Below, piece by piece: positions 1,705-36,490 of a stretch of 64,000 nt of DNA. The notes beneath the pieces were generated by a model. That model ran no database searches. It saw only the letters and a program-made list of their open reading frames with translations, and was not told where the DNA came from. A program made the translations under genes and the position numbers. The first letter of the stretch is position 1. Every line of letters starts with the position of its first letter. This stretch comes from Longimicrobiales bacterium. GTDB taxonomy: Bacteria; Gemmatimonadota; Gemmatimonadetes; Longimicrobiales; Gaopeijiaceae. The stretch is taken from contig CBDBCF010000001.1 of NCBI GenBank assembly GCA_965202985.1, positions 1,120,001 to 1,184,000 on the forward strand, given 5' to 3'.

Positions 1705-2107
1705 CAGAAACGATAACGACGGCCGAAGCGCCGGGAGGAATCCGCGGGACGGCGGAGAGGCGCGGGCCGGCGCCGACCTGTCGAAAGGCCTGGAACGCGA
1801 AGGTGACGCGGTCTGGGCCGGGGCCGCCCCACTCGACCGACAGCTTGCCTACGCCGTCGCGGGCGGGCCGAAGGGACACCTCGATCTCCAGGCCCTGTTC
1901 GGGGGACTCGATACGGGCCCGGACGCGCCGGTCGGCCTCTGGACCGGGGACCCGGGAAGGGTTGCGGAACAAGGTCTTGGTGGACTGGCGACCGCCGGGC
2001 AACCGCCGGGTGACCCGAATCCGGTCGAGCCAGTCCGGCGGGTAGCTGATCCGGTAGCGAAAGCCGCACTGGTCCTCGCCCTCGCCCCAGCGGTTGTGGC
2101 GCGCCAC
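1697..2107 (-). CDS. hypothetical protein
   Basis: About 136 aa ORF from GTG, overlapping mlaE start; no recognised motif. Confidence 0.5.
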   Translation of the reverse strand: MARHNRWGEGEDQCGFRYRISYPPDWLDRIRVTRRLPGGRQSTKTLFRNPSRVPGPEADRRVRARIESPEQGLEIEVSLRPARDGVGKLSVEWGGPGPDRVTFAFQAFRQVGAGPRLSAVPRIPPGASAVVIVSDA

Positions 2108-2213
2108 ACTTGACCTCCTCGCGAACGATGACGATTCTTCGAGAGGCGGGTTGCCCTGCCCTCTGCTACGCCCGATCCCCGCGCCGCCCTGCTTGTCGGC
2201 ACGAGCGCCCCCG

Positions 2214-3470
2214 ATGGACGTCACCCAGCTCAGGAACAGCACCGTAGCCGAACTTCAAGGCTACGCCGATTCGCTCAAGGTCCCTTACGGCGGAGGTCTT
2301 CGCAAGCAGGACCTCATCGTCCGCATCCACCAAGGGCTGGCGCGCAGGAACGAGACTGCGTGGACGCGCGGCGTCCTGGACATATTGCCCGACGGCAACG
2401 GCTTCCTGCGGTCTCCCGACTGGAACTACTTGGCCGCGCCGGGCGACGTGCACGTGCACCCCGCCAAGGTGGCCCAGATGGGCTTGCGCCGGGGCGACGC
2501 CGTCTTCGGGTCGGTGGGGCCCGGCGGGCGGGGCGGTCGCTTTCTGACGTTGACCGGCGTGGAGCGCGTCAACGGCCGTCCGCCGGAGCACGCCTCGGGC
2601 CGCCCGACCTACGAGGAGCTTCGGCCCACCTATCCGGACCAGCGGCTGACGCTGGAGGTGCCTCGTGGGAACGTGGCGATGCGGATCGTGGATCTGGTGG
2701 CGCCGGTCGGGCTTGGGCAGCGCGGGCTGATCGTGTCTCCGCCCAAGGCGGGCAAGACCACGATCCTGCGGAACATGGCGAACGCAATCTCGGCCAACCA
2801 CCCCGGCGTGGAGCTTCTGGTCCTGCTCATCGACGAGCGGCCCGAAGAAGTGACCGAGATGACGGACGCCGTGCCCGACGGCGAGGTCGTTGCCTCCACC
2901 TTCGACGAGCCGGCGATCCGGCACCGGCAGGTGGCGGAGATGGTGCTGGAGAAGGCCAAGCGGCAAGTGGAGTACGGGCGCGACGTGGTGATCCTCCTGG
3001 ACTCGGTGACGCGGCTGGCGCGCGCGTACAACACGGTGGCGCGGCACTCCGGCCGCATCCTGTCCGGAGGCGTGGACGCCAACGCGCTTCAATGGCCCAA
3101 GAAGTTCTTCGGCTCGGCCCGAAAGATCATGGACGGCGGCTCGCTGACGATCGTGGCGACGGCGCTGGTCGAGACGGGCAGCCGCATGGACGAGGTGATC
3201 TTCGAGGAGTTCAAGGGCACGGGCAACATGGAGCTGGTGCTGGACCGGGAGACTTCGAACCAGCGCATCTTTCCTGCAATCGACTTGAACCGATCCGGGA
3301 CGCGGCGCGAGGAGATGCTGCTTTCGCCCACCGAGCTGAACCGCGTCTACGTGCTGCGGAACTTCCTGTCGGACATGCCCGCGCCGGAAGCCGCCCAGTT
3401 CCTGCTGGACCGCATCGGCCGCCACCCGACGAACGATGCGTTCCTGGCGGCGATGGCTGTCGGCGAGTAG
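2214..3470 (+). CDS. rho: transcription termination factor Rho
   Basis: [41 protein letters not shown]. Confidence 0.96.
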
Positions 3471-3485: not shown

Positions 3486-4700
3486 TCAGGCCGCAGGAAC
3501 CACCCGTCTCGTTTCCACGTGATGGAGGCCCAGGTCGTCCTGCCTTCGCAGGAGCAGCCGGTCGCCCTCCGCGTCCATGACGAGCAGCGAGCGCGGCAAC
3601 CGGAGACGCCGCAGCGGCGCGCCGTCCAGGTCCACGTTGATCCAGTCCCGGTGCTCGATCCCCGGAATCCCGCGACCACCCAGCCACAGCGTCCGGTCCC
3701 GGGCGAACACGATCGCGGCAAAGCCGTCGGCGCGTTCAGGCAACGGGGCGGACGCGAGCCGCTTCTCCATGCGCGTCCGGGTGAGCGCTACCAGAGCGTA
3801 CAGCGAATCAGTGACGCGGTCCTTGACCTCTCCGCCGAGCTCCAAGGCCGTGCCTTTGACGGCAACCTCGAGCCGGGTGACGCCTTCCGCGTCGATGAAC
3901 CTCACCCGCGGAGGACCCTCCGACACGAACAGGAACCCGGCCCCGGCGGCAAAGCTCGTGATTTCGGGTACGGGCGGAACACCGGCGCCCATTCCTCCTG
4001 GTCCAGAGTAGTAATCGGGACCGGGTACTGAAGCGACGGGGACCACCTCCCCGTCCATCCGCCAGCGCACGACCGAGAACGGCACTCTAAAACGACCGGC
4101 AGAATACTTTCCAGGCCAGATTTGCGCCTGCTCCACCAGCCATGCCTCCTCCGCAACCGGCCCTGGCCACACCTCCACGGGCGGCAACATTCCCTTGAAC
4201 TCAAAGGTCCGCCCCTCGCCGGTCGCCGGCGAGAATACCGTGCCGCGTCGAAGGTCGAAGTCGTAGACGAAGACCGAATCTACCGGCCATGACCACAAGG
4301 AACTCAGCCGCATGAACTCCATCGGGCCTTCTCCCCGCCGTCCGACGGTGCGCTCCAACCGCCCGAGCGTATCAAGCACGACGACCCGACGGTTGCCGCT
4401 GTCGGCGACCACGGCCCTGCCCTCGTTCGCGAACACGGCCCCCGCAACTCCGGCGAGGAAGCCCGTCGCCTCTTCGTCCAGCTCGTAGCCGGAGCGCTCG
4501 TCCACGCTCCACAGCTCCGCATCGTCAAGGCGCCACGACACCACCGGGTGGTCGCCCGCCGGGCTGGCCTGCTCCGTGCAGCCGACGACCAGCGCCGCGA
4601 GGACCAGGACGACGGATCGCCCCGGCCCCAATGACACCGGCCGCTCTGCCGATTCCGTCGAGTTAGCTGGGCTCCTCGCTCTCCCTACCGCCCCCACCAA
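3486..4700 (-). CDS. 6-bladed beta-propeller-like lipoprotein (tandem paralog B)
   Basis: Lipobox-like LVVGC, GRRGEGPMEF, C-terminal DDLGLHHVE; start uncertain because the paralog's ATG position reads TCG here. Confidence 0.75.
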   Translation of the reverse strand: MVGAVGRARSPANSTESAERPVSLGPGRSVVLVLAALVVGCTEQASPAGDHPVVSWRLDDAELWSVDERSGYELDEEATGFLAGVAGAVFANEGRAVVADSGNRRVVVLDTLGRLERTVGRRGEGPMEFMRLSSLWSWPVDSVFVYDFDLRRGTVFSPATGEGRTFEFKGMLPPVEVWPGPVAEEAWLVEQAQIWPGKYSAGRFRVPFSVVRWRMDGEVVPVASVPGPDYYSGPGGMGAGVPPVPEITSFAAGAGFLFVSEGPPRVRFIDAEGVTRLEVAVKGTALELGGEVKDRVTDSLYALVALTRTRMEKRLASAPLPERADGFAAIVFARDRTLWLGGRGIPGIEHRDWINVDLDGAPLRRLRLPRSLLVMDAEGDRLLLRRQDDLGLHHVETRRVVPAA

Positions 4701-4915
4701 CGAACTACTATTTGGTCATGGCAGCACATATCCATGTCCAGGCGGCAGGCGAAGCACCCGCAATCAGTGCCGGCGCAGGCCCGCCTTAGCTCGGGGACGC
4801 AGTGTTCGTCCGCCTCGCATGGGGTCTGTGCGGCGGTCGGGGGGCTGGCCGGCAAGAGGGCCGCTGCGAGCACGACCACGCCAGCGAGGAACAGAATGCG
4901 AATGGCTTCGATCAT
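4685..4915 (-). CDS. small secreted Cys-rich peptide (76 aa, 8 Cys)
   Basis: AAGGAG RBS, ATG, hydrophobic signal ILFLAGVVVLAAALLP..TAA|Q, mature part with 8 Cys. Confidence 0.75.
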   Translation of the reverse strand: MIEAIRILFLAGVVVLAAALLPASPPTAAQTPCEADEHCVPELRRACAGTDCGCFACRLDMDMCCHDQIVVRWWGR

Positions 4916-4956
4916 GGAGCTTGTCTCCTTGCGTAAGGTGTTTCTGCGGAAGCCGC

Positions 4957-6138
4957 TCAATACGATCCGCTCGCGGGAACCACCTGTCTCACTTCCACGT
5001 GATGGAGGCCCAGGTCGTCCTGCCTTCGCAGGAGCAGGCGGTCGCCGTCCGCATCCATGACGAGCAGCGAACGCGGCAACCGGAGACGCCGCAGCGGCGC
5101 GCCGTCCAAGTCCACGTTGATCCAGTCCCGATGCTCGATCCCCGGAATCCCACGACCACCCAGCCACAGCGTCCGGTCCCGGGCAAACACGATCACGGCA
5201 AAGCCGTCGGCGCGTTCAGGCAACGGGGCGGACGCGAGCCGCCTCTCCATGCGCGTCCGGGTGAGCGCCACAAGAGCATACAGCGAATCGGTGACGCGGT
5301 CCTTGACCTCTCCGCCGAGCTCCAAGGCCGTGCCTTCGACGGCGACCTCGAGCCGGGTGACGCCTTCCGCGTCAATGAACCTCACCCGCGGAGGACCCTC
5401 CGACACGAACAGGAACCCGGCGCCGGCGGCAAAGCTCGTGACTTCGGGTACGGGCGGAGCGCTGAAGCCCACTCCGCCAGAGCCGAAGTGGTAGTCGGCG
5501 TAGGGTACCGAGGCGACCGGGGTCACTTCCCCGTCCATCCGCCAGCGCACGATCGAGATCGGCACTCGATGGCGACCGGCGGGGTACTTTCCGGGCCAAA
5601 TCTCGTACCGCTCCGCCAGCCATGCCTCTCCTGCGACCGGCCCCGGCCACGCCCCCGCGGGCGGCAGCATTCCCTCGAACTCGAACGTCCGCCCCTCTCC
5701 AGTCTCCGGCGAGAACACCGTGGCGCGTCCAAGACCGGAATCGTACGCGAAAACCGAATCTCCCGGCCACGACGACAGGGTGCTCAGCCGTCTGAACTCC
5801 ATCGGGCCCTCGCCTCGCCGTCCGACGGTCCGCTCCAGCCGCCCGGGCGCATCTAGCACGAGGACCCGACGGTTGCCGCTGTCGGCCACCACGGCCGTGC
5901 CCTCGCTCGCGAACACGGCTCCCGGAACTCCGGCGAGGAAGCCCACCGCCTCTTCGTCCAGCTCGTAGCCGGATTGCTCGTCCACGCTCCACAGCTCCGC
6001 GTTGTCGAGGTGCCACGATACCACCGGGTAGTCGCCTGCCGGACTGGCCTGTTCCGCGCAGCCGACGAGCAGGGCCGCCAGGACCAGGACGACGGATCGC
6101 ACCGGCCCCGGCGGCGGTCGCTCTGTTGATCCCGTCAT
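4957..6138 (-). CDS. 6-bladed beta-propeller-like lipoprotein (tandem paralog A)
   Basis: LLVGC lipobox, GRRGEGPMEF; highly similar to 3486-4700. Confidence 0.8.
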   Translation of the reverse strand: MTGSTERPPPGPVRSVVLVLAALLVGCAEQASPAGDYPVVSWHLDNAELWSVDEQSGYELDEEAVGFLAGVPGAVFASEGTAVVADSGNRRVLVLDAPGRLERTVGRRGEGPMEFRRLSTLSSWPGDSVFAYDSGLGRATVFSPETGEGRTFEFEGMLPPAGAWPGPVAGEAWLAERYEIWPGKYPAGRHRVPISIVRWRMDGEVTPVASVPYADYHFGSGGVGFSAPPVPEVTSFAAGAGFLFVSEGPPRVRFIDAEGVTRLEVAVEGTALELGGEVKDRVTDSLYALVALTRTRMERRLASAPLPERADGFAVIVFARDRTLWLGGRGIPGIEHRDWINVDLDGAPLRRLRLPRSLLVMDADGDRLLLRRQDDLGLHHVEVRQVVPASGSY

Positions 6139-6253
6139 GTCAGCTGGGCTCCCTCAGTCCTCGCCGCCGCCCCCAGTCGGAGCAGCTTGTCTGTCGTACC
6201 GGCAAGCCGCTCGTCCCGGACCACGGTCCGCCAGACAGTCCGTCTCGTCGACT

Positions 6254-7420
6254 TCATCGGTTCGCCTCCAGGTCCAACACCTCGAGCCGCCACCCCTCCT
6301 CGGAGTCCTGCGTCGCCACGTACAACGCAGTGTCGGCCGCCACCACGCGACCGCCCAGCGTAAGGTCCCGCGCCAGCAGCCGGCCAGACCCCAGCTCGAA
6401 GATGTCCGCCCGATACCGTGCCTCGGACAATGCCGTCTCCCGGTCGTTCAGGTCCTTGAGCACCACCACCACCATCGAGTCGTCCAGCACATGGACCCCG
6501 TCGATCGTCGTGAACGACTTGAGCCATTCGTCGTGTCGCGTGCGGCCCTCGGGACCTGCGAACGCGAAGAGCTCCGGGTGGCTTGGGAGCCGGAAGGAGG
6601 CCGACGCGCTCCCGAACGTACCCTTCGGCGCGCCGTCCGAGCCGTAGCGATGGAGCGGGTAGAGGGAGTTGGCGACCACCAGCTCGTCCCCCGCCGGCGC
6701 CACATGGGTCGTGAACCACCCTGTCCAGTACGGCACGCCTTCCATCCTCTCGTCGCGCGGATGGAAGGTTGCAACCGACCTGCCTTCGTAGTCGTACACC
6801 GCGACTTCGTTGCCCGGGCCGCGAGGTCGCATGAGGACGGTGGCCAGCTTGTCCTGCCACGCCCGAAGCTGCACGAGGAAGTACGTGCCTTCGACGGTGA
6901 AGAAGGTGTCCACGGCCAAGTCGGGCGAGATGCGCGCGACCGCCGCCACGGGCTGGCCCGAATCGAACGCCACCCTGCGAGCGGTGCCTGTGACGTACAG
7001 GTGCCGATCTTGCCCGAATGCGATGCTACCCGCCCCCGCCCCCGACGGCTGCCAGAACCCCGCGGGCTCGCCGTCCGCGCCCGGCACCGAGGCCAAATAC
7101 TTCCCGTCCGGTCCGTACTTGTGGACTCGCCCGGTCTTCCCGTCCAGCACGAAGAGGTTCCCGGCGACGTCCACCGCCAAGTCCTCCACCCCGAGCAGGG
7201 GCGGATTCCCGTCGCGCTCGAGGACAATCGTCCGCACCTGCGCCAGCTCCGCGCCGGTCGTCTGCTCCGGCGGAGCCTCCGGCTCGGACGTGCATCCGCT
7301 CCACGCCGCCAGGGCGAGCGCCGTCGTCGTGACAGATAGAGGGAGGCGTTGGCCAGCCTCTCCGACTATACGCCGTTGCCGGGGCGCGCCGACGCGGCCT
7401 TGCTCTGTAACGACTCTCAT
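6254..7420 (-). CDS. NHL/6-bladed beta-propeller-like lipoprotein
   Basis: LAAWSGC lipobox-like; DLAVDVAGNLFVLDGKTGRVHKYGPDG blade; start approximate. Confidence 0.7.
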   Translation of the reverse strand: MRVVTEQGRVGAPRQRRIVGEAGQRLPLSVTTTALALAAWSGCTSEPEAPPEQTTGAELAQVRTIVLERDGNPPLLGVEDLAVDVAGNLFVLDGKTGRVHKYGPDGKYLASVPGADGEPAGFWQPSGAGAGSIAFGQDRHLYVTGTARRVAFDSGQPVAAVARISPDLAVDTFFTVEGTYFLVQLRAWQDKLATVLMRPRGPGNEVAVYDYEGRSVATFHPRDERMEGVPYWTGWFTTHVAPAGDELVVANSLYPLHRYGSDGAPKGTFGSASASFRLPSHPELFAFAGPEGRTRHDEWLKSFTTIDGVHVLDDSMVVVVLKDLNDRETALSEARYRADIFELGSGRLLARDLTLGGRVVAADTALYVATQDSEEGWRLEVLDLEANR

Positions 7421-7635
7421 GGCAACCGACTTCCCCTTGACAATTCGGCTCGCACACCGAGCCGTCGCAAGTAGACAGCTCCGTGCCGCTCCACGGGGTT
7501 CCATGGCGACAAGAGGAGTGCAACAGAAGACGCCAGAGAACGCCAGAATGCCGCTACCGTCGCCCGGCTCCCCGCGTCCGCCCTCAGCGCCAGCAGATCC
7601 ATCACTGGGTCGCCCTCCGCATCCATGACGAGAGC

Positions 7636-10442: not shown

Positions 10443-11098
10443 CTTTGTTCAGTCCGCGACGACGGTGCAGGCACGGCCCCGGCGCCCAGCCGCTCGAAGC
10501 TGTCCACGACCGAATGGATCAGCGCTTCGTGGGCCAGTTCGGCATGGCCGTAGTTCATGGTCGGCACGTGGAACGACAGGTCCGCGGGCACTGCTCGCAG
10601 GCGGTTGTCGGGAGAAAACGCCGAGAAGGTCGCCAGCCTCAGCCCCGAGTCGCGGCCGGCGGCGGCGGCGGACACCACGTTCTCGGAGTCGCCGGAACTC
10701 GAGACGGCCATGAGCAAATCGCCCGCCCGCGCTGTTGCTTCCAGCGGCCGCTTGAAGACCTGTTCGTATCCGAAGTCGTTGGCCATGCAAGTAAGGAGCG
10801 CAGGGTCGTTGAATGCAAAGGAACGGATGCCGCACTTGTTGAGAACATCCTGGGACAGGTGCGAAACCATCGCCGCGCTGCCGCCGTTGCCGATCCAGTA
10901 GATCGACCGGCCGGTGGCCGCCTGCTCCGCCCACAGCTGCAACAAGGCTTCCAAGCCGGCCTCGATGGCGACTGCGCGTCCTCCCTGTTTGCATGTCGCC
11001 TTGTCCAGCAGGCTGGCCAGAATCCGCAACCAGTGCAGCGACGCCTTGCCGCCCGAACCGGGGCCGGACCCCAAGTCGCTCGCGTCTATGCGCAACAC
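10439..11098 (-). CDS. gmhA: SIS-domain phosphoheptose isomerase-like protein
   Basis: GNGGSAA, TCMANDFGYEQVF, SSSGDSENV; start approximate. Confidence 0.75.
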   Translation of the reverse strand: MLRIDASDLGSGPGSGGKASLHWLRILASLLDKATCKQGGRAVAIEAGLEALLQLWAEQAATGRSIYWIGNGGSAAMVSHLSQDVLNKCGIRSFAFNDPALLTCMANDFGYEQVFKRPLEATARAGDLLMAVSSSGDSENVVSAAAAGRDSGLRLATFSAFSPDNRLRAVPADLSFHVPTMNYGHAELAHEALIHSVVDSFERLGAGAVPAPSSRTEQS

Positions 11099-12006
11099 TG
11101 GGCGCCCGTCGCGGCGTTGGAGCAAATGGCGCCGTTCACGTAGCACGTGTAGCAGGCGGCTTCGGTCAAGCGCACGTCCATTCTCGCCGCTTCGGGCAGC
11201 GTGTCGGCCAACCGCGCGCCGGGAGAATCCAGCAGGATCGGGCAGGCGTACACGCCGTCGGCGGTGACCAGCCGGGCGCGCGTGCACAGCAGTTGGTCCA
11301 GGTCGAAGCCGCACAGCATCTCATGAGTCACGATCTCGTCGGGAGCGTAGCCGCGACTGCGACGGGCCTCTTCGCCAATCAACAGGGGCGGCAGGATCTT
11401 CAGTCGGGGTTCGGCGTAGCCCGCCGACGCCAAGGCCCGGCGGAAAGCGCGCAACGTGGCCGGTGTTTCTTCGTCCGGCCAACTCTGCATGGCGGTGATG
11501 ATCGGCCGGAATCCGGCGGCGGCCAAGCGGCCCACGCCTTCCATTGCCCGGGCGAAGGCGCCTTCGCCCCGAATGGCGTCGTTGGTCGCCGCCGAAGGTC
11601 CGTCCACGCTGACGCGAAGCTCCAAGGCATTGCCGCTGTCGCCCGCGATGCGCCGCAACGCCTCGACTCGGCGGGGCGGAAACAGGGTCGCATTGGTCAG
11701 CACGGTGGTCGGTCCGTACCGGAGGGCGTCCTCGAGTATGCCCTCCATTTCGTGGTGCATGAAGGGTTCGCCGCCCGTGAAGTAGTACTCGCCGACGCCC
11801 ATCTCCGCCGACTGTTCCAGGGCTTCGCGCACCGCCTGCCGGGACATGAACCAGAACGAGTGGTTGTCGGGCGAACACGAAATGAAGCAGTGGCGGCAAC
11901 GCAGATTGCATACCGTGCCGGCAACCTGGAACCAGAGCTGGTCCAGCGCCGTCAACGACACGGCGGGAGCGGAAGGAGTGGCCGGAGCGGCCGGGCGAGC
12001 GATCAT
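11086..12006 (-). CDS. radical SAM protein
   Basis: CNLRCRHC (CxxxCxxC), FTGGEPF, C-terminal Cys cluster. Confidence 0.9.
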   Translation of the reverse strand: MIARPAAPATPSAPAVSLTALDQLWFQVAGTVCNLRCRHCFISCSPDNHSFWFMSRQAVREALEQSAEMGVGEYYFTGGEPFMHHEMEGILEDALRYGPTTVLTNATLFPPRRVEALRRIAGDSGNALELRVSVDGPSAATNDAIRGEGAFARAMEGVGRLAAAGFRPIITAMQSWPDEETPATLRAFRRALASAGYAEPRLKILPPLLIGEEARRSRGYAPDEIVTHEMLCGFDLDQLLCTRARLVTADGVYACPILLDSPGARLADTLPEAARMDVRLTEAACYTCYVNGAICSNAATGAQCCA

Positions 12007-12182
12007 GGAGGGTCCAAGTTGGGGCTTGAGACCGGGCGGAGCAAGAGAGGCGAGCCGTCGCCCCGTGGGGACAGGACTACATTGGGTTGCATGGGACGGC
12101 CGAGCGCGAGCGCCGTCCCGACCGCCGGGGGCAAGACCGCCCGGCCCGCCCTGCACGCCGAACCTCCAACGCCGCTTCGCCC

Positions 12183-33503: not shown

Positions 33504-34760
33504 TCAGGACGGCCCCAGTTCGAGCAACCGTACAACGCGAACGATCGGGAGGCCGGATTCGTCCCTCTCGACGTACGCCATCAGCCCATCGGGTCCGAAC
33601 GCCGCCGGTATGCGGACGCCGTTTGCGGGCAGCGTGCCCACGTAACGGCCGTCGGCGCCAAAGACGTCGGTTGGTCCGTCGGAACGGCCGTCGCTGGCCG
33701 AACGCGCGACCCAGATGCGGCTCTCCGAGTCGATGGCCATCGCGCTGACGACGGGAATCTGATCCGCAAAGGTCATCCGATCCAATGCGGTCGCCAGGAT
33801 TTGGCGTCCGATCGCTTCACGGATCTCCTGAGACATCCCCGGACCGGTTACGGAAATCTTGCGATTCCGAACGACTTCGGTCTTCCGCTTCCGCTCGGCT
33901 CGTCTTATCTCCGGCGTGACGTCAAAGGGCGGAATCGGCCTCTCCAGCGTTCCTTCGACCACTCCAGAAACCGAGATCAGTTTGACGCGATAGTCCACAG
34001 AATCGACTACGGCAACGCGACCATCGGGCAGGACATCGACAAGCAGCGACGGCGCGAACTCCGGGGGTTCTCGCATTCCGATCTGCAGGCCAACTCCTAG
34101 GTCGCCGTCCGCCTGTGTTTCGTCGCGGCTTGCGTGGTCGGTCGTTTGGGGCATCTCCCAAGCGGTGTAGAGCGTCTGCCGCACGCCGTCCGACGAAAAA
34201 GCGTCTATCGGACGGCCGAGGCCGCCGCCCGACCTTCCCGTCGCAAGTATTCTGCCGTCGGGCAACGCTCGCAGCACGCGACCAAATCCGTTCAACGACC
34301 CGCGACCGCTCGACTCGACTTGAATGCGACCGCTCATCGCTCCGGCCGTATCGAACACCAGAAAGGCCCTGTGTCCCAGGTCCCACGCCAGCAACCGCCC
34401 ATCGTCCGTGGCCACCAGCGAAATCGGCGCTTCCAATTCGGCCGGGCCTTCTCCCGGATGCGGAATCTCGCGACGAAGGCTCCCGTCCGAAGCCACGACG
34501 ACGATCCGCTTCCGACGCGCGTCCAGCAACGCAAGATCACCGGACATGGTGAAGGCCAGCGAGCTGATCCGGCTGAACAACGCCCATTCCTCGCCCGAGG
34601 CACCGCCGCCCGCGACGAAGACTTCCTCTGTCGCGGCCGCTATGGGGACGTCCAAATCAAGCGCCCCTTCGTCCCCGCAAACCGCCAATGCCGCCAATGC
34701 AAAGGAGGCGATCATGACCGATCGCGCGGTTCCCGGCCGGCTATGGCTCGAGCGCTTCAT
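33504..34760 (-). CDS. 6-bladed beta-propeller-like protein
   Basis: GEGPAEL, PAAFGPDGLMAYVERDESG; same subfamily as 17588 and 34767. Confidence 0.8.
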   Translation of the reverse strand: MKRSSHSRPGTARSVMIASFALAALAVCGDEGALDLDVPIAAATEEVFVAGGGASGEEWALFSRISSLAFTMSGDLALLDARRKRIVVVASDGSLRREIPHPGEGPAELEAPISLVATDDGRLLAWDLGHRAFLVFDTAGAMSGRIQVESSGRGSLNGFGRVLRALPDGRILATGRSGGGLGRPIDAFSSDGVRQTLYTAWEMPQTTDHASRDETQADGDLGVGLQIGMREPPEFAPSLLVDVLPDGRVAVVDSVDYRVKLISVSGVVEGTLERPIPPFDVTPEIRRAERKRKTEVVRNRKISVTGPGMSQEIREAIGRQILATALDRMTFADQIPVVSAMAIDSESRIWVARSASDGRSDGPTDVFGADGRYVGTLPANGVRIPAAFGPDGLMAYVERDESGLPIVRVVRLLELGPS

Positions 34761-34766
34761 TCCCAG

Positions 34767-36104
34767 TCAGTCGAGTGCATCGGCAGACGGCATTGCGAGG
34801 CGCAACAGCCGGACCACATGGACGAAGGGAACGCCGAGACCGTCCGTTTCCACATATGCCATCAGGCCGTCGGGGCCAAATGCCGTTGGAATCCGAATCT
34901 GATCCGGGGCCAACGTGCCCATGTACTGACCGTCGGCGGAAAACACGTCCGTCGGCCCATCGGAGGCACCGCTGTTTCCCGTGCGAGAGACCCAAATCCG
35001 ATCCTCGGAATCCACCCCCATTGCATCTATGACGGGAATCTGCGCGGCGAAGGTCAACTGCCGAAGATTGGTCTCCAGCGTATGACGCAAGGCTGTGTCA
35101 ATGGTCTCCTTGTCGATGCCGGACCCGTAAGCCGTAATCGTGACGCTCTCCTCAGCGTCTCCCGCCGTCAACTCCGCCTCCATTGCATCTCTCACGGCTT
35201 GCTCAACATCAGGCGTGACTTTACGCGGCAGAATTGCTCTTTCCAGTACGTTCTCAACGAGACCGCCAGACGAGAGCAACTTGATGCGATAACCTATGGA
35301 ATCGACCACGGCCACGCGTCCGTCCGACAGGACGTCCACCAACAAGGGCGGGGCAAAATGAGGGCGATCAGTGCCGAAGGAGAACATCCTCGTGTTGTCC
35401 CCCGAAGTCGGGACCTCTTCCATTTTCCGGTCAGTGGCAGACGGCAAGTCCCATGCCATCATTAAAGTGTCTCTTCCATCTCCTAAGGAAAGGACCTCGA
35501 CTGGACGGCCAGCGGCACCAAAACGGAACCCGCCAAATGCCACGATCCGACCGTCCGGCAACGGTCGAAAGGTCTTGCCGCTTAGGTCGGTGAGGCTTGG
35601 CACTTGAATACCGGTAAGACCCGGCAATTGCCGGGTAGATGCCGGTCCGCGATCGACCCGATGCTGCTCCAGAAAGGCACCGTCCAGACCAAATACCAGA
35701 AACGATCTGTGGCCAACATCATAAACCGCCAATCGGCCGTCGTCCATCGCCATGACCGAAGCCGGCGACCGCAATTCACCGGGTCCGTCACCCGCCCGCG
35801 AGAGATCGTGGCTCCGGTTGCCGTCTTGGGCTACGACGACGATGCGCCGCTGAAGGTTGTCCACTACCACCAAGTTTCCCTTGGCGTCGAACACGGCATC
35901 CGTAACCGCCGTGAACGATTCCCATTCCTCGCCTTTGACATCTCCGATGGAGAATACATCTTCAGTTGTTGCTACGATGGGCACATCGTCGGGCAGTTCT
36001 TGTTGGGCTGAGTTCCCGCAACCACCAGCTAAGAATGCGAACAGTGCGCAGATGCAGGTGACCTTACCGATCATCCTTTCCATAATTCTTATCCAGTTGT
36101 CCAT
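34767..36104 (-). CDS. 6-bladed beta-propeller-like lipoprotein
   Basis: FLAGGC lipobox, GDGPGEL, PTAFGPDGLMAYVETDGLGV. Confidence 0.8.
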   Translation of the reverse strand: MDNWIRIMERMIGKVTCICALFAFLAGGCGNSAQQELPDDVPIVATTEDVFSIGDVKGEEWESFTAVTDAVFDAKGNLVVVDNLQRRIVVVAQDGNRSHDLSRAGDGPGELRSPASVMAMDDGRLAVYDVGHRSFLVFGLDGAFLEQHRVDRGPASTRQLPGLTGIQVPSLTDLSGKTFRPLPDGRIVAFGGFRFGAAGRPVEVLSLGDGRDTLMMAWDLPSATDRKMEEVPTSGDNTRMFSFGTDRPHFAPPLLVDVLSDGRVAVVDSIGYRIKLLSSGGLVENVLERAILPRKVTPDVEQAVRDAMEAELTAGDAEESVTITAYGSGIDKETIDTALRHTLETNLRQLTFAAQIPVIDAMGVDSEDRIWVSRTGNSGASDGPTDVFSADGQYMGTLAPDQIRIPTAFGPDGLMAYVETDGLGVPFVHVVRLLRLAMPSADALD

Positions 36105-36175: not shown

Positions 36176-36490
36176 CTAAGTGCGTTCGCATGCCAGGATG
36201 AGGAGGTCCACAGGGCCTTTATTGGTATGGATGGTCAGCACGCCGATTATCTCACATGTCCACGTTTCCTCTTCTGGTTCGTTATTGACGCACGTGGCGT
36301 CACACTTCTCCTCGTGCTCCTGCGCAGGGACATGTTGGGCCGGAGTAGCCAGAGCTGCCGACATGACCAAGGCGATCCACAACCGCCACGCCTTCACGCC
36401 TCGGACGGCTGCTGGCTTCGCGGCAACTCCGCCGATCGGAACGGCGATGGACGCGGCAAACTGGAACAACGACGAGATTAGGAACCTCAT
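36176..36490 (-). CDS. small secreted Cys-containing peptide (104 aa, 4 Cys)
   Basis: AGGAGG RBS, hydrophobic LWIALVMSAALA, putative VPA|Q cleavage, 4 Cys in mature part. Confidence 0.7.
   Translation of the reverse strand: MRFLISSLFQFAASIAVPIGGVAAKPAAVRGVKAWRLWIALVMSAALATPAQHVPAQEHEEKCDATCVNNEPEEETWTCEIIGVLTIHTNKGPVDLLILACERT

Follow-up and report, generated by a model that had tools for sequence, protein, structure and literature searches.

The 64-kb stretch of DNA analysed here (the window) belongs to a genome of 3.86 Mb and 68% GC (G000) that encodes about 88 propeller proteins, a count reached by removing eight of 96 matches as spurious or of another type. Nine of these propeller genes lie in the window. 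Two of them, closely similar to each other, enclose a small gene, P0001, which encodes a cysteine-rich peptide with a predicted signal peptide. The features needed to follow the description are listed below, all on the minus strand.

3486..4637, minus strand: clade B propeller copy 2 (B2), six-bladed, predicted lipoprotein; recorded start GTG 4637
4685..4915, minus strand: P0001 peptide gene, 76 aa; codons 1-29 (4915-4829) encode the predicted signal peptide
4925..4930, minus strand: Shine-Dalgarno-like sequence AAGGAG, 9 nt before the ATG of P0001
4957..6138, minus strand: clade B propeller copy 1 (B1), six-bladed, predicted lipoprotein, 393 aa, 85% identical to B2
6135..6257, minus strand: 40-aa ORF with a shortened membrane-anchor N-terminus as in P0034, lacking the 25-residue hydrophobic stretch
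6254..7333, minus strand: clade A propeller, six-bladed, NHL-type, predicted lipoprotein, start uncertain; same clade as accompanies the peptide family
36176..36490, minus strand: unrelated 104-aa ORF with a ribosome-binding site, a hydrophobic stretch and 4 Cys, before the propeller 36104-34767

The cassette runs in the order clade A propeller, 40-aa ORF, B1, peptide and B2, and is followed by a rho-like gene. This rho-like gene (2094-3470) lies on the opposite strand and ends 15 nt from the stop of B2; its closest match in genome G001 has no adjoining cassette. Just upstream of the cassette, a 25-nt stretch (7608-7632) is a 96% match to the 3' part of both B genes (5040-5064 and 3560-3584), and is perhaps what an earlier B copy, or movement of the cassette, left behind. 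A radical SAM-like ORF with a CxxxCxxC motif (11086-12156) is found 6 kb upstream of P0001 on the same strand; it is set aside as unrelated, there being no counterpart at related peptide loci.

P0001 is a real gene. The 76-aa sequence reported in a first-pass annotation of this DNA, which gave no strand, corresponds exactly to 4915-4685 on the minus strand, and the AAGGAG ribosome-binding site proposed for it is present at 4930-4925. Its frame is indeed enclosed by a longer ORF of 160 aa (5167-4685) in the ORF track; it was missed by that track only, and the gene cannot be called hidden, as the exact protein is already recorded in NCBI and ENA. The leader has a basic N-terminus and a 15-residue hydrophobic stretch, followed by a T-A-A/Q site at which cleavage after Ala29, as judged by eye, is predicted. 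The mature part would then be 47 residues long and carry a net charge of -3, with eight acidic and five basic residues besides its 8 Cys, in agreement with the signal peptide and eight cysteines first described. The glutamine at the predicted mature N-terminus is present in P0001 but is constant only in the 8-Cys subgroup; a role for a glutaminyl cyclase, suggested by this residue, was dropped because the glutamine is not family-wide. P0001 is covered, without listed differences, by two sets of contigs from a single sample that is possibly the source; they do not constitute independent support. The hexamer coding score of P0001 is negative in every frame, though highest in the correct one; since it is also negative for 35 of the 96 propeller matches, this score is uninformative. 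A promoter scan returned 0 sites, and terminators were no more frequent than expected by chance.

The flanking genes B1 and B2 are 87.6% identical in DNA, so the description of P0001 as lying between duplicated propellers was sound. The overlap with the downstream propeller that had also been proposed is not found from the recorded GTG start of B2, which lies 48 nt beyond the P0001 stop; it would arise only from an alternative TTG at 4700, a start absent from the records. The B2 codon aligned with the ATG of B1 is TCG. Of 60 amino-acid changes between the two copies, 53 fall within residues 1-250 and seven in the remainder, an uneven divergence which could reflect either gene conversion or a diverged binding face. 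Synonymous changes are likewise fewer beyond residue 250. In a FastTree phylogeny of 133 propellers, B1 and B2 form a separate clade (support 0.997) and the upstream gene 7333-6254 is placed in clade A (support 0.999), which has 31 members, five of them from G000. Clade B directly flanks a family peptide only in G000 and G165, plus a remnant in G001.

P0001 is a member of a family that includes two paralogues in G000 (C1:2556151 and C2:895830). The family profile found 23 proteins and, when 301 genomes of this bacterial family were searched, 23 loci distributed over 17 of them. Among 1.84 billion representatives the family forms 63 clusters (50% identity) of 48-108 aa. The named relatives are uncultured Gemmatimonadota, mostly Longimicrobiales; the outliers by label are one short contig (Bryobacterales) and one protein (Gammaproteobacteria). 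The former, a 2.8-kb contig (L095, P0045 cluster), carries the complete three-gene unit described below, with a peptide almost identical to that of a Gemmatimonadota locus (L096), and mis-binning or transfer may account for its label. A single-sequence search with P0001 in 41 genomes gave three weak outside matches that were not counted. A JGI metagenome scan with the 8-Cys alignment gave one locus among the matches listed, which was rejected as an unrelated protein matched through its signal peptide only.

Conservation of the cysteines in homologous loci, a check proposed at the outset, was found: Cys39, 52, 57, 64 and 65 are invariant in 41 aligned members, and a sixth is nearly so. The family spacing is C-x(2-10)-C-x(6-20)-C-x4-C-x6-CC, with inter-Cys loops of 6 to 20 residues, and the C-x4-C-x6-CC spacing or one near it recurs in 60 of 61 further representatives, a set that overlaps in part with the alignment. 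Cysteine counts are even in 39 of the 41 aligned members (six in 30, eight in nine, seven in two) and in all 61 further representatives (six in 50, eight in nine, four in two), and the nine 8-Cys members of the alignment share one extra pair, Cys47/Cys54. All members of both sets are net acidic. The family leaders are hydrophobic, about 25-35 aa long, and have A-x-A-like ends; within two subgroups they are 91-96% identical, compared with 46-49% for the non-Cys residues of the mature part. The pooled dN/dS over five close pairs, all of the 6-Cys type and none of the 8-Cys subgroup, is 0.52 for the mature peptide and 0.25 for the clade A propeller; that of the leader is 0.25 over four pairs, one having been excluded because the G001 copy is broken there. 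The family thus appears, from its sequences, to be a constrained coding gene with relaxed loops. Positive selection on the mature peptide was considered and is unsupported by the pooled value of 0.52; because dN/dS lies below 1, the variation of the loops may reflect relaxed constraint as much as diversifying selection. Profile and sequence searches with 41 members gave no relevant match in Pfam, NCBIfam or PDB, and ESM Atlas gave no usable match to the peptide. An AlphaFold2 model of the peptide alone (pLDDT 57.9, pTM 0.25) is too weak for fold comparison. The earlier proposal of an export-type disulfide-rich peptide is thereby borne out as a prediction, with its cysteines conserved among homologues.

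The linkage of these peptides to propellers is general, a same-strand propeller being present within 1.5 kb at all 23 peptide loci. The constant neighbour is a clade A propeller, found at 22 of the 23 loci (directly downstream at 18 and upstream at four). The first proposal, that the downstream clade B gene is the cognate partner, is not supported as it stands; the window's member of clade A is the upstream gene 7333-6254. At 16 of the 23 loci there is also a third gene, overlooked in the first-pass annotation, for a membrane-anchored CxxC protein, named thioredoxin-like here because of its invariant CxxC and its redoxin-type Atlas neighbours at 0.90, which include Redoxin, Thioredoxin_2 and AhpC-TSA clusters; a third Cys is likewise invariant in all 12 proteins compared, and the family has no Pfam thioredoxin match and no PDB match. 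At each of the 21 loci anchored on the thioredoxin-like gene (19 records), a clade A propeller (partial in one case) accompanies a peptide of the family, in two gene orders; these loci partly overlap the 23 peptide loci and, being drawn from a small number of related genera, are not independent. Other protein clusters within 4 kb of these loci recur at best at 3 of 21, with no conserved transporter, protease, regulator or signal transducer. The comparison of these loci points to a conserved unit composed of a membrane-anchored CxxC thioredoxin-like protein, the peptide and a clade A propeller.

The clade A model (pLDDT 88) has 24 strands after an N-terminal linker, arranged in six four-stranded blades, and its nearest structures are NHL domains (Z 22.7). 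Other fold neighbours are phytase (1poo, Z 21.2), a DUF4221 protein (3s9j, Z 21.2, rmsd 3.5, 302 aligned) and PAL (3fw0, Z 20.4, rmsd 3.8, 262 aligned). As modelled, clade A has an NHL-type six-bladed propeller fold, a fold that does not in itself give function. Six positions are invariant in the clade: D64, Y73, G77, P201, Y202 and L337. The mature peptide (residues 30-76) was co-folded with the clade A propeller (residues 24-359), using alignments of 41 and 30 rows respectively. The ipSAE was 0.02 in each of the two runs, the mark being 0.32; controls were not folded and the pLDDT of the peptide was below 50 in at least one run, so this result is no evidence either way.

Enrichment of small Cys ORFs beside propellers, which had been suggested as a genome-wide check, was observed. 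Nine of 20 small ORFs with a ribosome-binding site, a hydrophobic stretch and at least four Cys have a propeller on the same strand no more than 600 nt away, whereas only 1.8% of randomly placed positions do (binomial P 3e-11); the thresholds were set with knowledge of the P0001 example, and several of the 20 ORFs are probably spurious. Seen from the propellers, an upstream Cys ORF is present at 10 of 88 (two of these look spurious) as against 2 of 600 random windows, and 78 of the 88 G000 propellers have no upstream Cys peptide. The layout at 36176, reported as a recurrence, is alike in having a ribosome-binding site, 4 Cys and a following propeller, but the ORF is not a second copy: it has no homology to the P0001 family (hhalign probability 0.9%) and is not matched by the family profile. 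It has only three close homologues in which the Cys are kept, one of them with a swapped C-terminal segment. In G000, then, several unrelated peptide families share the peptide-before-propeller layout.

Some further observations were made on these other peptides and their propellers. The 36176 ORF is followed by two tandem propellers of another clade (33504-36104), the first of which, 36104-34767, is the window propeller whose codon use is least like that of the genome. Near propeller clusters in G000, at C1:165620, C1:1890915, C1:2090568 and C1:2258216, lie members of a second family of peptides; their 8-Cys frame is CC..CC..CC-like, and the P0001 family profile does not match them. Exported 4-Cys peptides that end in C-x(3-4)-C-x(4-5)-CC form a third group, encoded at C1:576354, C1:1718599 and C2:839938, each beside a propeller. 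Further exported 6-Cys peptides with other frames precede propellers at G000 C1:1887206, L063:7222-7485 and L066:3565-4243, and two are in tandem in G274.

The window copy is a rearranged, decaying cassette. It has no intact thioredoxin-like gene, and the 40-aa ORF that stands between the clade A gene and B1 is, from its position, probably a remnant of one. The basis is G165, where a truncated thioredoxin-like ORF (14.6 bits, motifs kept) occupies the same position, flanked by an A-type gene and by an 8-Cys peptide with a frameshift; by sequence alone the likeness of the 40-aa ORF to the thioredoxin-like gene is not significant (1.7-2.4 bits, 114 of 1000 shuffles). An intact thioredoxin-like gene is present elsewhere in G000 (C1:2555538-2556128). 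The DNA upstream of B1 resembles the 3' end of P0001 upstream of B2, which suggests that a first peptide has been lost from the cassette.

Peptides have also been lost in relatives, at least twice and by in-frame deletion. In G001 (L017:6580-6670) the first 14 codons of the peptide are fused in frame to B2, the intact leader type being that of P0055, and a second fusion of the first 14 codons to a propeller, with a different junction, is found in P0112 and P0114. In both fusions the peptide has been removed, and its start has been taken over by the downstream propeller, which in this lineage lacks an ATG of its own. The other peptide of G001 and its CxxC gene are both broken, and A-B pairs without a peptide occur in G003, G114 and G141. 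Among 30 clade A loci (the best one per genome, with 1.5-kb flanks, in 30 of 45 genomes with matches), 11 have the peptide, nine the CxxC gene and three clade B, and 19 have no peptide. These numbers indicate that the CxxC gene follows the peptide and that the propellers outlive it. In congeners the cassettes lie at differing genome positions; a tblastx comparison of the flanks yielded nothing beyond low-complexity noise.

The reading favoured here, to which we give a probability of roughly 0.45, is that of a ligand and its partner, in which an exported disulfide mini-protein would be recognised by propeller lipoproteins. P0001 would be exported by the Sec pathway and cleaved after Ala29, and would form three core disulfides and a fourth from the extra Cys47/Cys54 pair, oxidation being the most likely state because the Cys counts are even and the extra Cys arrive as a pair. 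The CxxC thioredoxin-like protein could serve as a dedicated folding helper of the peptide, and the folded mini-protein could then be captured by the clade A propeller lipoprotein, with immunity or recognition as the outcome. The window copy would depend on the thioredoxin-like gene elsewhere in G000 or on general Dsb enzymes; a strict dependence of the peptide on the thioredoxin-like gene is weakened, since in the window this gene is gone and the peptide is intact. The peptide itself could act as a variable toxin or as an identity signal, an antagonistic role being the one proposed. Toxin and immunity, put forward tentatively, are favoured over pure signalling, which seems quite unlikely. The likeness to toxin-immunity systems lies in the conserved leader, the variable loops, the loss of peptides, the orphan and tandem propellers and the shifting genome positions. 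Orphan partners, as looked for in such systems, are seen in the peptide-free clade A loci and the two independent deletions; orphan propellers would be equally expected if the job of the propeller were unrelated to peptides. Confidence in a ligand and its partner is limited by the acidic charge, by the lack of conserved transport or sensing genes and by an activity that rests on prediction. Typical membrane-active antimicrobials are cationic, unlike the acidic peptides of this family. Clade A is the better candidate partner across the family, and clade B may be the partner in the 8-Cys lineage, where the peptide adjoins B and the two seem to have been duplicated together.

Unlikely, in our judgement, is a division of labour in which the propeller and the thioredoxin-like protein fold, trim or modify a peptide whose target lies outside the cassette, in a host or in another microbe. 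Such a maturation role would agree with the joint presence of the three genes at all 21 thioredoxin-anchored loci, with the enzymes PAL (3fw0) and phytase (1poo) among the six-bladed fold neighbours of clade A, and with SOQ1, in which thioredoxin and an NHL propeller are fused (a weak profile match). A maturase, however, should decay once its substrate is lost, and the persistence of propellers at 19 of 30 clade A loci without a peptide, and of A-B pairs in three genomes, makes this role, also raised by the first-pass annotation, a poor fit. The six invariant positions are, by eye, unlike a metal or catalytic cluster, and non-enzymatic NHL domains score as well as the enzymes or better (Z 22.7).

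The pairing originally proposed, in which the peptide is the cognate ligand of the directly downstream clade B propeller, is quite improbable. It draws on the three places at which the peptide immediately precedes B2 (this window, the remnant in G001 and G165); on two 8-Cys paralogues, P0013 and P0018, whose longest contigs are of equal length, which suggests duplication of a peptide-plus-B unit; and on the concentration of B1-B2 changes in residues 1-250 (53 of 60), as if binding faces had diverged. Set against these are the rarity of clade B at the thioredoxin-anchored loci (1 of 21) and at the clade A loci (3 of 30) and its failure to give a full match at any of 16 fetched loci, a set that excludes the 8-Cys locus of G165. 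Very improbable is an exported metal-binding or redox mini-protein with its Cys kept reduced by the CxxC protein and the propeller as scaffold. The peptides are acidic and Cys-rich, with frequent C-H and C-C motifs, and the CxxC protein resembles redoxin-type clusters, reductases among them; yet the Cys are almost always even in number with extras in pairs, as disulfides predict, the His after Cys39 is not conserved, the loops between Cys range in length from 6 to 20 residues and repeated deletion of the gene is seen. Hitch-hiking on mobile cassettes of exported proteins, with no functional tie between peptide and propeller, could be imagined from the abundance of propellers (about 88), the differing cassette positions among congeners and the frequent decay, but is highly improbable when one clade that accounts for 5 of 88 G000 propellers is retained as neighbour at 22 of 23 loci in several gene orders.

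In Bacteroidales, the NVEALA small proteins (PF14055) adjoin DUF5128 (PF17170) or TolB-like six-bladed propellers. The likeness is that of a small exported Cys protein before a six-bladed propeller lipoprotein; the Cys frame and the phylum are not those of the P0001 family. PF14055 matched none of 41 members at E up to 0.05 and did not match P0001 at 0.1, and it was found in none of 31 genomes of this bacterial family, but 14 control genomes gave no signal either. For DUF5128 the curated cut-off is 22.9 bits, which neither B1 (15.9 bits, E 0.008) nor B2 (20.6 bits, E 0.0003) reaches, and one of 30 clade A members is matched (E 0.006); the fold neighbour 3s9j of the clade A model is a DUF4221 structure. 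No paper on NVEALA or DUF5128 was found in the literature searched.

Thioredoxin-like and NHL propeller folds also occur together in NHLRC2 and SOQ1, the latter matched by the clade A profile (E 0.004), with the difference that here they are separate genes, are predicted to be exported and are joined by a peptide. The beta-defensins have the spacing C-x6-C-x4-C-x9-C-x6-CC and a cationic charge. Beta-defensin and conotoxin-like peptides resemble the P0001 family in a conserved signal peptide, a variable mature part and six Cys ending in C-x6-CC, and differ from it in that the family has a middle spacing of C-x4-C-x6-CC, an acidic charge and a bacterial operon context; no sequence match to them was obtained in Pfam or PDB. 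Ranthipeptides or SCIFF peptides, with six Cys in about 45 residues, are reported to be frequent in a related Gemmatimonadota order (PMC11651109). The P0001 family shares this number of Cys and this length of the mature part, and differs in its leader, which is of a hydrophobic export type; neither a motif search nor phmmer with the window's radical SAM protein found a radical SAM maturase at any of 21 loci, and no NCBIfam precursor model for ranthipeptides or SCIFF matched the 41 members.

The sublancin locus encodes its own thiol-disulfide oxidoreductases, BdbA and BdbB. In Bacteroidales, disulfide-bonded bacteriocins (bacteroidetocins, BcpT/BcpI and AID clusters) are accompanied by immunity lipoproteins, and orphan immunity genes are described as well (PMC11901371). 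The shared traits are a small secreted disulfide peptide, a neighbouring lipoprotein, a partner kept without the peptide and a dedicated oxidoreductase, here predicted. The P0001 family differs in its 6-8 Cys, its acidic charge and its Sec-type leader (the hydrophobic leaders have no double-glycine motif as in class II bacteriocins or bacteroidetocins), its partner is a 350-aa propeller, and it has no conserved transporter or protease; any killing by it is putative. By analogy, the P0001 unit may work in the manner of a bacteriocin locus for a disulfide peptide that brings along both an oxidoreductase and an immunity lipoprotein. A doubtful but possible extension is that these bacteria hold conotoxin-like libraries, each peptide family having its own folding enzyme and propeller clade, and that the roughly 90 propellers per genome are a stored repertoire for immunity to, or recognition of, the peptides of neighbours.

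No description of this peptide-propeller system was found in the literature searched, which took in few subscription journals, and the terms 'propeller' and 'NHL' are absent from the main text, as searched, of the Gemmatimonadota genomics papers PMC11316326 and PMC11651109. The definition of the family, the distinction between clades A and B and the asymmetry of loss are new here. Libraries of mini-proteins with 6-8 Cys, a fixed frame and variable loops are familiar in animals and plants and, to our knowledge, rare in bacteria. The system offers a defined peptide, candidate partners (clade A versus clade B) and natural deletion variants, and its mini-protein scaffolds are possibly useful as stable binders. 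For Gemmatimonadota, the P0001 family gives a handle on the role of six-bladed propeller lipoproteins, of which this 3.9-Mb genome has about 88. Were the extension to conotoxin-like libraries true, polymorphic peptide conflict or kin recognition of a new class would be at hand, and one of the most expanded unknown protein groups of these bacteria would gain a function.
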